A stretch of DNA of 64,000 bases from Escherichia coli (GCF_045037415.1 NZ_CP173438.1), one strand, 5' to 3'; shown: positions 51,110-58,579, counted from the stretch's first letter. A program made the numbers and translations. Notes: a model not told the origin generated them from the sequence alone.

Positions 51110-51181
51110 CGCCATAGTCGCTAAATCTGATGATTAAGCTCACACAATTTCAACGATTTTTTTAATCTCAAAACCATACAG

Positions 51182-51275
51182 CATCAAAAAATTTGTTGCT
51201 GTATGCCACTCTTTGACTCCCTTCACATTCGTCATCACACCACCTGCTGAATGCAAAAATTTCGTTGCTGTGCGG
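51182..51275 (+). promoter_or_regulatory. Direct repeat of a 16-18 bp AT-rich motif upstream of the accessory cluster
   Basis: CAAAAAATTTGTTGCTGTATGCC (51185-51207) and CAAAAATTTCGTTGCTGTGCGGC (51253-51275); candidate regulator binding sites. Confidence 0.3.
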
Positions 51276-51365
51276 CAAACTTTTTTCCTGTTTTGTGCCG
51301 CTTTTCTCCTGAATACTCGTTCTCAGAACAACTGGATCGTTTAAACATCAGACAGGAGATTTACC

Positions 51366-52034
51366 ATGACGCAATCCATTTTTCAGGCTCAACCCTTTGA
51401 ATTACCTTTTGATCCGCGCACAACTGCACTGGTCATGATCGACATGCAGCGTGACTTTGTCGAAGCCGGGGGCTTCGGTGAGGCACTGGGCAATGATGTT
51501 TCACGGGTACGCACGGCTATCGCACCATGTACAGAGGTGCTGGCAGCCGCACGTCAAAAAGGAATTATGGTTATTCATACTCGTGAAGGCCATCGTGCAG
51601 ACTTAAGCGACTGCCCGCCAGCCAAACTGACGCGCGGCGGAAAAACCTTTATTGGTGAACCAGGACCGATGGGACGCATTCTGGTCAGAGGTGAAGCAGG
51701 TCATGACATCATTCCTGAACTGTACCCGGTGGCAGGCGAACCGGTGATTGATAAGCCTGGCAAAGGCGCGTTTTATCAAACCGACTTACATCTGATTTTG
51801 CAAAACCACGGTATCAAGACGCTGATAGTTTGTGGTGTAACAACCGAAGTTTGCGTAACCACCACCGTGCGCGAAGCAAATGATCGTGGCTATGAATGCA
51901 TTATCCCGGAAGATTGTGTCGGCTCCTATTTCCCGGAATTCCAGAAATACGCCCTCGAGATGATCAAAGCACAAGGTGCCATTTTCGGTTGGGTTACTGA
52001 TTCCAAAGCCATTATTGCAGGTCTGGAAGGCTAA
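51366..52034 (+). CDS. Isochorismatase-family cysteine amidohydrolase (RutB / N-carbamoylsarcosine amidase-like)
   Basis: 222 aa with catalytic triad context ALVMIDMQRDF (Asp), KPGKGAF (Lys), VCGVTTEVCV (Cys) and C-terminal FGWVTD as in RutB. Confidence 0.75.
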   Translation: MTQSIFQAQPFELPFDPRTTALVMIDMQRDFVEAGGFGEALGNDVSRVRTAIAPCTEVLAAARQKGIMVIHTREGHRADLSDCPPAKLTRGGKTFIGEPGPMGRILVRGEAGHDIIPELYPVAGEPVIDKPGKGAFYQTDLHLILQNHGIKTLIVCGVTTEVCVTTTVREANDRGYECIIPEDCVGSYFPEFQKYALEMIKAQGAIFGWVTDSKAIIAGLEG

Positions 52035-52039
52035 CGCCG

Positions 52040-55975: not shown

Positions 55976-56924
55976 GCCACTGGCTGTCGTCGCGGTTGGC
56001 GGCAATGCGCTCATTCAGGACGAGCAACGCAATAGTATTCCCGATCAATATGTTGCAGTGATGGAAAGCGTGCAGCATATCGTTGATATGGTTGAAGCCG
56101 GATGGGACCTGGTGCTAACCCACGGTAATGGCCCGCAGGTGGGCTTTATTCTGCGCCGCTCTGAACTCGCCAGTAACGAAGTTTCTCCGGTTCCACTTGA
56201 TTACGCCGTGGGTGATACACAAGGTGCAATTGGCTACATGTTCCAGAAAGCGCTGCATAACGAACTCGCTCGCCGTGGCATAAACAAACCGGTAATTGCC
56301 CTGGTGACACAAACGCGAGTCAGCCCACATGACGATGCTTTCGCCAGCCCCAGTAAACCGATTGGCGCGTTTCTCGATGAAGCAACGGCCCAACAACGCC
56401 AACAACAACTCGGCTGGACGCTGATGGAGGACGCCGGGCGTGGTTGGCGGCGTACAGTTCCCTCTCCTGCACCACTGGAAATTATTGAGCACGACACCAT
56501 CGCTCACCTGGTGCGCCAGGGATATCTGGTTATTGCCTGCGGCGGCGGCGGTATTCCGGTGGTGCGAGACGGGCAACAACTGAAAGGTGTAGAAGCCGTG
56601 ATCGATAAAGATCTGGCCTCCGCGCTGCTCGCCAGTCAGTTAGGCGCAGATCTGCTGGTGATCCCCACCGGTGTAGAAAAAGTGGCGATTAACTTTGGTA
56701 CACCACAACAACAGTGGCTCGACGCTATCAGCGTTGCCGAAGCGCAAACGCTGTTGCGGGAAGGTCAGTTTGGTGTCGGCAGTATGCAACCCAAAGTGGA
56801 AGCCATTGTTGATTTCATCAATGCCAGCCAGCAACAAGGCAAACAGGCCAGCGGCCTGATTACTTCACCGCAAACCATAAAAGCAGCCCTGGCGCATCAG
56901 AGCGGTACATGGATAACCCTTTAA
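55968..56924 (+). CDS. Carbamate kinase-like (amino acid kinase family; YahI/AllK/ArcC-like)
   Basis: About 318 aa from MVKPLAVVAVGGNAL; THGNGPQVG, GGGGIPV, IDKDL and MQPKVEA motifs typical of carbamate kinases. Confidence 0.8.
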   Translation: MVKPLAVVAVGGNALIQDEQRNSIPDQYVAVMESVQHIVDMVEAGWDLVLTHGNGPQVGFILRRSELASNEVSPVPLDYAVGDTQGAIGYMFQKALHNELARRGINKPVIALVTQTRVSPHDDAFASPSKPIGAFLDEATAQQRQQQLGWTLMEDAGRGWRRTVPSPAPLEIIEHDTIAHLVRQGYLVIACGGGGIPVVRDGQQLKGVEAVIDKDLASALLASQLGADLLVIPTGVEKVAINFGTPQQQWLDAISVAEAQTLLREGQFGVGSMQPKVEAIVDFINASQQQGKQASGLITSPQTIKAALAHQSGTWITL

Positions 56925-56940
56925 TTCTCTGGAGAACACA

Positions 56941-57330
56941 ATGACTACAACGCTTTTAGCCGTTAACGGAACGCTGATGCGCGGCCTGGAACTCAACCCA
57001 AATATGCAAAAAGCGGGCGGTATTTTTGTCCGTGAAGACCGAACTGACGCCCATTACCGGTTGTGGAGTATTAATGATCGCCATCCGGGAATGATTCGCG
57101 TGAATGAAGGAGGAACACACGTCGACGTAGAAATTTGGCAATTACCGCTGGCCAGTTTTGCCGCTCTGTTAATGAGCGAACCCGCTGGGCTGGCAATTGG
57201 CAAAATCAAACTTGCCGATGGTAGCGAAGTGCTGGGCGTACTGGCAGAAAACTGGCTGACCGAAGGCCAACGGGAAATTACAGAACTGGGTAGCTGGCGT
57301 AAATACACCGGGCATTTTCATACTGTGTAA
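56941..57330 (+). CDS. Small protein, possibly gamma-glutamylcyclotransferase/AIG2-like fold
   Basis: 129 aa; N-terminal VNGTLMRG resembles the YGSLM motif of GGCT-like proteins; weak assignment. Confidence 0.4.
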   Translation: MTTTLLAVNGTLMRGLELNPNMQKAGGIFVREDRTDAHYRLWSINDRHPGMIRVNEGGTHVDVEIWQLPLASFAALLMSEPAGLAIGKIKLADGSEVLGVLAENWLTEGQREITELGSWRKYTGHFHTV

Positions 57331-57355
57331 CGCGCATTTATAAAGGGAACATACT

Positions 57356-58579
57356 ATGCGTAAAAAAGAAGAGAATCTGAATACGGCATCAGGATTGCGT
57401 ATTGCCATGATTTTGCTGGGTATTGCCGTCACACCTGTGCTGTTGTCATCCTCAAGCCTCGGCAATCAACTTTCCAGCGGCAGTTTAATTAGCGTCGTAT
57501 TGTTAGGCGGCGTCATTCTGACCTTACTTTCAGCCATCACCATTAGCGTGGGAGAAAAAGCCCGCCTGCCAACGTATGGCATTGTGAAATATTCGTTTGG
57601 CGAAAAAGGGGCCATCGCCATTAACATTTTGATGGCGATAAGTCTGTTCGGCTGGATTGCCGTTACCGCCAATATGTTTGGTCATTCGGTACATGACTTA
57701 CTGGCTCAACATGGACTGGAAGTTCCACTGGCACTGTTAGTGGCGGCTGGCTGTGTCATTTTTGTCGCCTCTACGGCATTTGGCTTTGCCGTTCTGGGAA
57801 AAATTGCCCAGGTTGCCGTGCCGGTTATCGCGCTGGTGCTGTGTTACATCCTCTATGTGGCAACCCATACCGAAGTGGCAGTACCAGCGGCGATTGTGGA
57901 GATGAATACAGGTGTCGCCGTTTCCACCGTTGTTGGCACCATTATTGTGCTGGTTGCCACACTGCCTGATTTCGGTAGTTTTGTGCATAACCGCAAACAT
58001 GCGCTGATTGCCGCAGGCGTGACGTTTCTGGTTGCCTACCCTCTGCTCTACTGGGCGGGTGCAACGCCGAGCGCCATTAGTGGTCAGGGATCTTTACTGG
58101 GTGCGATGGCGGTATTCGGTGCAGTTCTGCCTGCGGCGCTGTTGTTGATTTTCGCCTGCGTCACCGGTAACGCGGGCAATATGTTCCAGGGCACGCTGGT
58201 GGTTTCCACACTGCTTACCCGCTTTCCCAAATGGCAGATTACCGTGGCGCTGGGTATCCTTTCCGCCATCGTAGGCAGTATGGATATTATGGCGTGGTTT
58301 ATTCCGTTTCTGCTGTTCCTGGGTATCGCCACGCCACCCGTTGCCGGAATTTATATCGCTGACTTTTTCCTTTATCGCCGTAATGGCTATCAAGAGTCAG
58401 TGTTAGCCCAGGAGTCACAGATTAAAGTGCTGACATTCGCAGCATGGATCATAGGCGCAGCGGTTGGCTTTATGACCGTAAAAGGCTTATTCACCCTGAC
58501 GACGATCCCTTCGGTAGACTCGATTCTGGTGGCATGTATCGCGTATGCGATTCTCAGTCGGGCAAGTCAACACCGCTAA
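57356..58579 (+). CDS. NCS1-family nucleobase/heterocycle permease (CodB-like)
   Basis: 407 aa with about 12 predicted TM helices and a CodB-like architecture. Confidence 0.65.
   Translation: MRKKEENLNTASGLRIAMILLGIAVTPVLLSSSSLGNQLSSGSLISVVLLGGVILTLLSAITISVGEKARLPTYGIVKYSFGEKGAIAINILMAISLFGWIAVTANMFGHSVHDLLAQHGLEVPLALLVAAGCVIFVASTAFGFAVLGKIAQVAVPVIALVLCYILYVATHTEVAVPAAIVEMNTGVAVSTVVGTIIVLVATLPDFGSFVHNRKHALIAAGVTFLVAYPLLYWAGATPSAISGQGSLLGAMAVFGAVLPAALLLIFACVTGNAGNMFQGTLVVSTLLTRFPKWQITVALGILSAIVGSMDIMAWFIPFLLFLGIATPPVAGIYIADFFLYRRNGYQESVLAQESQIKVLTFAAWIIGAAVGFMTVKGLFTLTTIPSVDSILVACIAYAILSRASQHR

Follow-up and report, generated by a model that had tools for sequence, protein, structure and literature searches.

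Organization of the gene cassette

The subject of this analysis is a gene cluster at positions 51110 to 58579 of a 64,000-nucleotide stretch of Escherichia coli DNA (GCF_045037415.1, NZ_CP173438.1). The whole stretch is termed the window, and its numbering is used throughout. We describe the genes, their relatives in other organisms, and a possible role in the use of triuret as a source of nitrogen and energy. Seven intact, co-directional open reading frames (ORFs) occupy the + strand from 51366 to 58579, downstream of the ysgA stop codon at 51109, as had been described in an earlier reading of the sequence (the original prediction). This had also placed the cluster at the ysgA/metE position. 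The RefSeq annotation of a 100% identical sequence type 131 (ST131) genome confirms the location, which is empty in K-12.

The first gene (51366..52034, + strand) encodes a TrtA-type isochorismatase-like cysteine hydrolase of 222 amino acids (aa), a predicted triuret hydrolase that matches the structure of TrtA (PDB 6XIX) with 271 bits and carries its signature residues. Next come three genes for proteins of the AllFGH families. These are an AllH-like (DUF2877) subunit (52040..52900, +; Pfam AllH PF11392, 5.4e-27), an AllF/FdrA-like subunit (52995..54554, +; NCBIfam PRK06091, 496 bits, cutoff 433) and an AllG-like (DUF1116) subunit (54551..55975, +; Pfam AllG PF06545, 1e-98). The AllF-like protein resembles the alpha subunit of succinyl-CoA synthetase, and both Pfam Ligase_CoA and CoA_binding match. 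The gene for carbamate kinase (55968..56924, +; TIGR00746, 366.2 bits, cutoff 358.25; PRK12352, 377.6 bits, cutoff 266) overlaps that of the AllG-like protein by 8 nt. It is followed by a gene for a free-standing C-terminal domain of allophanate hydrolase (AH_C; 56941..57330, +; 129 aa, GGCT-like fold), identified by its identity to PDB 5C5Z, and by a gene for a CodB-like NCS1 permease (57356..58579, +), the predicted substrate importer on the basis of matches to the NCS1 superfamily.

Profile searches uphold all the family assignments of the original prediction at the superfamily level (Pfam AllH and AllG, NCBIfam FdrA and carbamate kinase). Its seven genes are correct, but it overlooked an eighth, encoding a LysR-type regulator (58657..59562, +) whose nearest named families are PunR and AllS. 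This gene is part of the cassette; it accompanies the other seven in the plasmid copies, in the E. coli B copy and in those of other genera. The spacings between successive genes from the hydrolase to LysR are 5, 94, -4, -8, 16, 25 and 77 nt, an operon-like arrangement.

A third paralogue of the AllFGH and carbamate kinase set

The FdrA/DUF1116/DUF2877 and carbamate kinase genes are a genuine third paralogue of this set in E. coli, additional to the all and yah genes. Comparison with the K-12 proteins gave identities of 42% to YahF and 40% to AllF for the AllF-like protein, 46% to YahG and 49% to AllG for the AllG-like protein, 49% to YahI and 39% to AllK for the carbamate kinase, 26% to YahE and 33% to AllH for the AllH-like protein, and 34% to both YahB and AllS for the LysR protein. 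These values are comparable to the distance between the all and yah proteins themselves. The allFGHK genes are core, being present in 5407 of 5426 complete E. coli genomes, and yahFG are found in 5039. Strain MS15236 has both yahFG and the cassette, and yahI and yahJ are present in the B-lineage strain BL21(DE3). Because identity to both sets is 26-49%, and allFGHK and yahFG coexist elsewhere in the genomes, the cassette is an extra copy and not a rearranged all or yah locus. The third paralogue claimed in the original prediction is therefore real, as is the yah-like gene order that it noted, H-F-G-K corresponding to yahE-F-G-I.

The AllFGH-like proteins constitute an orthologous group of their own, with 59-79% identity across bacterial classes compared with 40-49% to AllFG and YahFG. 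Viewed as an AllFGH oxamate carbamoyltransferase, the cassette encodes the three subunit families (FdrA/AllF, AllG and AllH) together, with an adjacent catabolic carbamate kinase. The proteins are not orthologues of E. coli AllF, AllG and AllH (33-49% identity, equidistant from YahEFG), and the genes lie outside the all regulon.

We note that a plasmid (NZ_CP101275.1, 59680-62554) carries a yahE-F-G-like set that is 79.5% identical to chromosomal yahFG. Many of the 119 plasmid places matched by a yahFG query are presumably this divergent copy, a further AllFGH-family paralogue circulating in E. coli. The K-12 yah set comes with a hydrolase of its own, YahJ (L009:8126-9508), a member of the metal-dependent amidohydrolase family, and with the LysR gene yahB. 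This suggests that a dedicated upstream hydrolase supplies every module of the AllFGH family.

The hydrolase is most likely an orthologue of TrtA

When solved structures were ranked against the hydrolase, TrtA of Herbaspirillum (6XIX) came first with 271 bits, followed by the biuret hydrolases (BiuH) 6AZO with 235 and 6XJM with 231, and by RutB with 105. Global identity is 58% to TrtA, 53% to BiuH and ~32% to RutB. The protein is closer to TrtA than to BiuH, RutB or other isochorismatase-like hydrolases (IHLs). The NCBIfam models place it in neither of the other two families, with 276.4 bits for BiuH (NF050097, cutoff 370) and 112.9 bits for RutB (TIGR03614, cutoff 377.95), and there are no rut genes nearby. 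The Asp-Lys-Cys triad (D24, K129 and C162 in TrtA numbering) is kept in the alignment with 6XIX, and orthologues carry PF00857.

According to PMC7948467, the residues that discriminate TrtA from BiuH are F35, N41, A134, E160, Y187 and I205, located around a shared Q202; BiuH has Y, Y, S, D, T and V at these positions. The window hydrolase has the TrtA residue at every discriminating position, and Q202. A search of 1.84 billion representatives at 50% identity gave mostly fragments and tandem-IHL fusions, and only its full-length, single-domain members were entered in a table of the signature. Of 86 family members gathered from other genomes, 76 have the TrtA residues, while three BiuH-type neighbours in those loci have Y, Y, S, D, T and V. 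Clustering with biuH and atzF is seen neither in the window nor in the cassette loci; it is found only for relatives of 67-71% identity (L077, L081 and L090, see below).

The hydrolase is thus most likely a TrtA orthologue, predicted to hydrolyse triuret to carboxybiuret and ammonia. Because it carries the complete TrtA signature, triuret is the best-supported substrate. The original prediction had instead described an enzyme like RutB or carbamoylsarcosine amidase. This is contradicted by the scores (113 bits for the RutB model, where 378 are required, and 105 bits for the RutB structure against 271 for TrtA) and by the complete TrtA signature. A ureido heterocycle had been suggested as the substrate, and the linear polyureide triuret is better supported. 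A RutB-type role in pyrimidine breakdown was rejected in view of the scores and the signature residues.

Conservation of the cassette across phyla

One genome per GTDB species was scanned, giving 319 stretches with relatives of the hydrolase, and the best 80 (98% to 67% identity) were analysed. The presence of each gene was scored by ORF clustering and tblastn over 84 loci (given L numbers) from ~80 species; most absences are at contig ends. The hydrolase gene is present in all 84, and AllF-like and AllG-like genes in 75 and 73. An AH_C-type sequence occurs in 69 (two of these, L077 and L090, being the C-domains of full AtzF proteins), carbamate kinase in 67, an AllH-like gene in 59-60, the NCS1 permease in 52 and LysR in 50-51. 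No other enzyme (BiuH, AtzF, urease or others) recurs in the cassette across the 84 loci.

The order hydrolase, AllH-, AllF- and AllG-like, carbamate kinase, AH_C and NCS1 permease (Hyd-H-F-G-K-C-N) is invariant in ~50 proteobacterial species, with LysR before or after, unrelated flanks and transposases nearby. Caballeronia, Photobacterium and Psychrobacter, for example, have the same seven genes in the same order between unrelated flanking sequences, with transposases close by. Homologues as close as 80-87% identity to the hydrolase are found in Enterobacterales, Vibrionales, Pasteurellales, Shewanella, Psychrobacter, Burkholderiales, Neisseriales and Dyella. The proteins of cassettes from other classes are closest to the window versions and never to All or Yah proteins, with identities of 59-67% (AllF-like), 73-79% (AllG-like), 61-73% (carbamate kinase), 66-71% (AH_C) and 64-75% (NCS1). 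More distant versions, from mycobacteria, Chloroflexi, marine Alphaproteobacteria and a metagenome-assembled genome (MAG) with a PucR-type regulator, keep the set in a reshuffled order, e.g. Hyd-T-H-F-G-K or H-F-G-K-Hyd-T-C, where T is a membrane protein discussed below. Clearly six or seven of the cassette proteins work together. Chance adjacency is ruled out by the synteny. The original prediction had proposed a neighbourhood survey as a check. The overall scheme that it outlined, from uptake through hydrolysis of an amide and transcarbamylation to ATP formation, is backed by this strict co-inheritance across phyla.

The same data bear on the idea that the AllH/F/G-like proteins and carbamate kinase are a redundant oxalurate module serving the fermentation of allantoin, with unrelated or accessory roles for the hydrolase, AH_C and permease. 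The kinase and all three subunit families do correspond in architecture to AllFGHK, and the RefSeq protein names follow it. However, the near-universal allFGHK genes would already provide this activity in 5407 of the 5426 E. coli genomes, identity to AllFGH is just 33-49%, and the module is linked to a TrtA-type hydrolase in ~75 of the 84 loci and to allantoin genes in none. We consider this explanation very improbable.

In three loci the hydrolase is 67-71% identical to that of E. coli, i.e. nearer than the assayed TrtA, and AllFGH-like genes are absent. These are canonical hydrolytic ureide clusters. L090 encodes the allophanate hydrolase AtzF (839 bits), a BiuH-type IHL (79% identical to Rhizobium BiuH and with the BiuH signature), a TrtA-type IHL and the transporter T. 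L077 encodes AtzF (802 bits), a TrtA-type IHL, T and an amidohydrolase of the AtzE family (727 bits), the family of carboxybiuret amidohydrolase. In L081, IHLs of both the TrtA and the BiuH type accompany UrtABC-like transporter genes. A single hydrolase clade therefore feeds either BiuH, AtzE and AtzF amidases or AllFGH-like proteins with carbamate kinase. From this two-way wiring we infer that the product of the hydrolase would be carboxybiuret, and hence its substrate triuret, and that the AllFGH-like and carbamate kinase module would be a functional alternative to the amidases.

The protein T is a multi-pass membrane protein of ~535 aa. Its gene follows that of the TrtA-type hydrolase in 24 of the 84 loci, in amidase-type and AllFGH-type clusters alike (e.g. 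L012:9737-11359, L077:10718-12331 and L074:7136-8731 on the - strand). It is unrelated to the NCS1 permease, which it replaces beside the hydrolase in related clusters, and searches of Pfam, NCBIfam and PDB gave no match. T is a candidate new family of transporter for triuret-like compounds, in the slot occupied by the NCS1 permease in the window.

The AllH-like protein evolves far faster than the other subunits, with 28-37% identity between taxa compared with 59-79% for the AllF- and AllG-like proteins. Its variation or absence was noted in L017, L023, L049, L051, L055, L064, L078, L082-L087 and L093, and this subunit may be dispensable or regulatory. We also looked at the context of five BiuH-type or distant representatives of the hydrolase family (P0137, P0138, P0197, P0216 and P0141), which lie on short contigs, a eukaryotic contig or in a canonical TrtA, BiuH and ABC transporter cluster. 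None of the five reproduces an archaeal biuH-allFGHK arrangement, which rests on PMC12625717.

The AH_C protein and the permease

The AH_C protein has the same sequence (100% identity) as PDB 5C5Z, an entry deposited under the name "glutamyl-tRNA amidotransferase". It matches allophanate hydrolases in their C-terminal ~120-130 residues only (positions ~440-600 of the models and residues ~485-640 of the structures), and the N-terminal amidase-signature domain is absent from the 129-aa protein. The core residues T35, Y39, E64, D93-G94 and W119-R120 are common to the fused C-domains of AtzF in L077 and L090 and of Granulibacter allophanate hydrolase, and orthologues carry PF21986. The GGCT-like protein of the original prediction does have such a fold, but is specifically the C-terminal domain of allophanate hydrolase. 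It is not TrtB, which is AtzH/HpxZ-like and belongs to an unrelated family. The best 120 matches in a homologue search were all cassette orthologues, and gave no independent context for a free-standing AH_C. The C-domain of allophanate hydrolase was reportedly proposed by Fan et al. (in J Biol Chem, 2013) to decarboxylate the N-carboxycarbamate that the amidase domain produces. Whether it is needed is said to have been questioned in later studies of AtzF.

If AH_C were an analogue of TrtB, it could decarboxylate the carboxybiuret formed from triuret by the hydrolase. The AllH/F/G-like complex would then split the resulting biuret into carbamoyl phosphate and urea, with carbamate kinase making ATP and the urea being excreted or used by a host urease. 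The pairing of the hydrolase with AH_C mirrors the decarboxylation of an N-carboxy product that was reportedly proposed for allophanate hydrolase; AH_C directly adjoins the hydrolase in L067 and L075, and the cassette has no TrtB (AtzH/HpxZ-like) gene. Against this, half of the nitrogen would be stranded as urea in urease-negative E. coli, and neither urease nor urea carboxylase is a recurrent neighbour of the cassette in the 84 loci. Moreover biuret lacks the carboxylate that oxalurate has, and some of the AllFGH-linked variants (L070, L076, L088 and L089) have no AH_C. A route through biuret is in our view distinctly unlikely.

The permease falls below the cutoff of the cytosine permease model (NF008241, 145.7 bits, cutoff 326) and matches CodB in the PDB (7QOA) at 7e-23. 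It is a member of the NCS1 superfamily and not of the CodB family proper.

A proposed pathway of triuret utilization

We propose that the cassette may be a self-contained mobile operon for the use of triuret as a nitrogen and energy source, a reading of the sequence data to which we assign a probability of roughly one half. Triuret (carbonyldiurea, H2N-CO-NH-CO-NH-CO-NH2) is a non-enzymatic oxidation product of uric acid. According to work cited in PMC7948467 it is found in human urine, and is formed from urate by peroxynitrite.

Triuret would be brought into the cell by the CodB-like NCS1 permease. The hydrolase would remove one terminal ammonia to generate 1-carboxybiuret, as indicated by its orthology and active-site signature. 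The AllH/F/G-like complex would next convert carboxybiuret and inorganic phosphate into carbamoyl phosphate and allophanate, and probably also allophanate and phosphate into carbamoyl phosphate and carbamate. Such phosphorolysis would stand in for the canonical BiuH and AtzF or AtzE amidases. Carbamate kinase would transfer the phosphate of carbamoyl phosphate to ADP, the established function of its family, giving ATP and carbamate, which would decompose to ammonia and CO2. The AH_C protein might decarboxylate an N-carboxy intermediate, as the C-domain of allophanate hydrolase has been proposed to do; of all the steps, this one is the least certain. The LysR protein would activate the operon via a pair of conserved boxes lying upstream of the hydrolase gene.

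Oxalurate is the proven substrate of AllFGH (PMC11326118). Carboxybiuret and allophanate, like oxalurate, are N-carbamoyl (N-acylurea) anions, and carboxybiuret can be regarded as an analogue of oxalurate. A related association has been described independently in floodplain nitrifiers: in comammox Nitrospira and ammonia-oxidising archaea, biuH or trtA lies together with allFGHK, in some cases also with codB (PMC12625717). This was the only paper found in the searchable literature that names both triuret and carbamate kinase.

A number of points weigh against the proposal. The hydrolase is only 58% identical to the sole TrtA that has been assayed, and specificity in TrtA and BiuH derives partly from second-shell residues, so that another planar ureide could be the substrate. 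The hydrolases of the cassettes keep 80-87% identity from class to class, an unusual degree of conservation for a subgroup and one that a distinct substrate could account for. Triuret has a low solubility (~1 mM), and the amounts present in gut or urine are low or uncertain. The AllH-like gene is missing from about a dozen otherwise complete clusters, including those of mycobacteria and some Caballeronia and Serratia, and AH_C from the four AllFGH-linked variants listed above. Finally, the authors of PMC12625717 took the collocation of biuH and allFGHK as two separate adjacent pathways, for biuret and oxalurate.

The hydrolase might alternatively have diverged from TrtA to act on some other ureide or N-carbamoyl compound, such as a purine or pyrimidine heterocycle, a ring-opened product or an oxalurate-related amide. 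Its limited identity to TrtA and the tight, separate subgroup would be consistent with this, as would a permease from the nucleobase-type NCS1 family, the resemblance of the regulator to PunR and AllS, and the JGI labelling of relatives as biuret amidohydrolase. Yet models of the RutB and nicotinamidase types lie far below TrtA and BiuH, the TrtA-specific residues are all kept with none of those specific to BiuH, and the nearest relatives outside the cassettes sit in TrtA-BiuH-AtzF/AtzE clusters. Nor is any ring-opening enzyme (of the amidohydrolase, AtzD, dihydropyrimidinase or hydantoinase type) conserved in the cassette. On balance we think a different substrate unlikely.

Distribution in E. 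coli and relation to the tkt1 island

The 7.5-kb stretch is 100% identical in ST131 and other E. coli chromosomes. The cassette was found in 1553 of the 5426 complete genomes (~29%), many of which belong to extraintestinal pathogens, and at 127 places on plasmids. In the identical ST131 genome the annotated order (RefSeq) is ysgA, cassette, LysR, RpiR, tkt, ptsG, hxlB and metE. The cassette is half of the known "tkt1 genomic island" (GR29, 16 kb) of B2 extraintestinal pathogenic E. coli (ExPEC) and APEC O1, where APEC stands for avian pathogenic E. coli. The cassette genes have been catalogued as APECO1_2632-2639, with no function given (PMC3349570), and a paper of 2026 speculates on pyrimidine or RutB-type nitrogen scavenging for them (PMC12928451). 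The original prediction had suggested an undescribed system, which does not hold for genes already catalogued in these papers.

A derivative of E. coli B has the eight-gene cassette alone between ysgA and metE. The homology of both this copy and the plasmid copy to the window ends at 59540/59541, within the last LysR codons. In the window the cassette meets the RpiR-tkt1-ptsG-hxlB module at 59541; this junction falls inside the 3′ end of the LysR gene and alters its last codons. The tkt1 island is thus composite, because E. coli B has the cassette alone and the homology stops at 59540/59541. We note that the G+C content falls to 38-41% at 59.0-60.5 kb of the window.

A second allele, of ~94.6% identity to window 51352-59541, lies on conjugative plasmids, 82 in number, of which 78 come from E. 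coli and four from Klebsiella. Many of its sources are chickens or ducks and some are human blood or urine, and a plasmid of APEC IMT5155 is included. The promoter region upstream of the plasmid allele (e.g. L002, NZ_CP160117.1) is unlike that of the chromosomal copy. In strain HH45 (NZ_CP116411.1, 4684482-4685834) only the hydrolase and a partial AllH-like gene are present (query 447-1835), a deletion remnant.

Enrichment of the cassette in B2 ExPEC lineages and on poultry-associated plasmids, together with the origin of many other carriers from uricotelic hosts (e.g. Avibacterium, Edwardsiella hoshinae, Thorsellia anophelis, Serratia sp. Ag1, Limnobaculum allomyrinae and Buttiauxella) is circumstantial, and fits the use of triuret. 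A wider proposal can be made tentatively, at well below even odds. The AllFGH family could be general N-acylurea phosphorylases, and the cassette an ATP-yielding polyureide route that feeds ExPEC and APEC on triuret from host urate oxidised by peroxynitrite. The overall conversion would then be of triuret into 4 NH3, 3 CO2 and up to 2 ATP. If so, triuret from the inflamed urinary tract or avian tissue would explain fixation of the cassette in B2 strains and its carriage on poultry-associated conjugative virulence plasmids.

The regulator and the upstream region

The LysR protein scored 288 bits with the NCBIfam model for PunR and 215 bits with that for AllS, both under the cutoff. PunR and AllS are regulators of purine-related genes, which, with the conserved boxes described below, counts in favour of the triuret proposal. 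The LysR gene is co-inherited with the cassette in 50 of the 84 loci, either upstream or downstream.

An alignment of 11 enterobacterial upstream regions revealed two conserved boxes. Box 1 (GCATCAAAAAATTTGTTGCTG; 51181..51201, +) is a putative distal LysR site with a (nearly) invariant CATCAA-N-TTG, and is a clear dyad in Edwardsiella, Budvicia and Limnobaculum. Box 2 (TGCAAAAATTTCGTTGCTG; 51252..51270, +), in which the CAAA..TT.G..GC columns are invariant, repeats box 1 and is a putative proximal activation site. A -10-like hexamer AATACT (51312..51317, +) with a conserved A.(A/C)(C/T) block lies ~48 nt before the start codon, with a weak -35. A simple scan for sigma-70 promoters and terminators gave nothing above shuffled expectation, and found no strong promoter on the + strand. 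This would fit dependence on an activator.

Comparison with known systems

The canonical triuret pathway TrtA-(TrtB)-BiuH-AtzF of Herbaspirillum sp. BH-1 and Rhizobium leguminosarum (PMC7948467) shares with the cassette a TrtA-type IHL with identical catalytic and specificity residues, and a dedicated transporter and regulator; the cassette also keeps the AH_C module of the AtzF C-terminus. By contrast the cassette has no BiuH, AtzF/AtzE or TrtB, and has AllH/F/G-like proteins with carbamate kinase instead. The later steps are hydrolytic in the canonical pathway, whereas in the cassette they would be phosphorolytic and yield ATP. The canonical transporter is a Bmp/Nup ABC system, in place of which the cassette has an NCS1 permease.

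E. coli AllFGH with AllK, which forms the oxalurate branch by which allantoin is degraded anaerobically (PMC11326118, PMC9843812), comprises the same three subunit families with an adjacent carbamate kinase, and presumably has in common the conversion of an N-carbamoyl compound and phosphate to carbamoyl phosphate and thence ATP. It differs in sequence (33-49% identity), in gene order (F-G-H-K, compared with H-F-G-K in the cassette) and in regulation, the cassette being outside the allantoin regulon. The cassette set is moreover tied to AH_C and a hydrolase of the TrtA type, has a permease and a regulator of its own, and is accessory and mobile whereas the all genes are core. The yahE-yahF-yahG-(yahH)-yahI-yahJ cluster with yahB has the H-F-G-K order, a LysR of the same subfamily (34% identity), similar divergence and an associated hydrolase gene. 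However, YahJ is of the metal-dependent amidohydrolase family where the cassette has an IHL, and the yah cluster has neither AH_C nor a permease.

The biuH/trtA-allFGHK(-codB) clusters of nitrifiers (PMC12625717) likewise combine an IHL of the TrtA/BiuH family with AllFGH-like proteins and carbamate kinase, and sometimes a CodB-like permease. They differ in often keeping AtzF or a GatA-like amidase, and BiuH, and have been described from nitrifier MAGs and genomes only. RutB of the Rut pathway is of the same IHL superfamily with the cysteine-hydrolase triad; the cassette hydrolase is set apart from it by an identity of only ~32%, the sub-cutoff model score, the lack of rut genes nearby and a TrtA-type active site.

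Each of the protein families is already known, as are the tkt1 island and the collocation of biuH and allFGHK in nitrifiers. In the searchable literature we found no assignment of triuret to E. coli genes and no identification of the E. coli hydrolase as TrtA. Nor did we find there a widespread mobile eight-gene cassette, or AllFGH-like enzymes replacing BiuH, AtzE and AtzF in a phosphorolytic, ATP-yielding polyureide pathway. If the proposal is correct, it would provide a function for eight genes in ~29% of complete E. coli genomes, including ST131 and other B2 ExPEC, E. coli B and many APEC plasmids; the tkt1 island serves as a marker of ExPEC. It would add a second class of substrate for the recently defined AllFGH family, and explain the puzzling collocation of biuH or trtA with allFGHK in nitrifiers. 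It would also be an energy-conserving alternative to the hydrolytic pathway for triuret, biuret and allophanate, with a bearing on impurities of urea fertiliser and on urate oxidation products.

A second islet is present in the window at ~42800-49239, in the rmuC/udp interval. It encodes an IclR regulator, 2-dehydro-3-deoxygalactonokinase, KDPGal aldolase and a TctABC tripartite tricarboxylate transporter. The rmuC-udp islet was described by Li et al. 2012 as ~5 kb in length and of unknown function.

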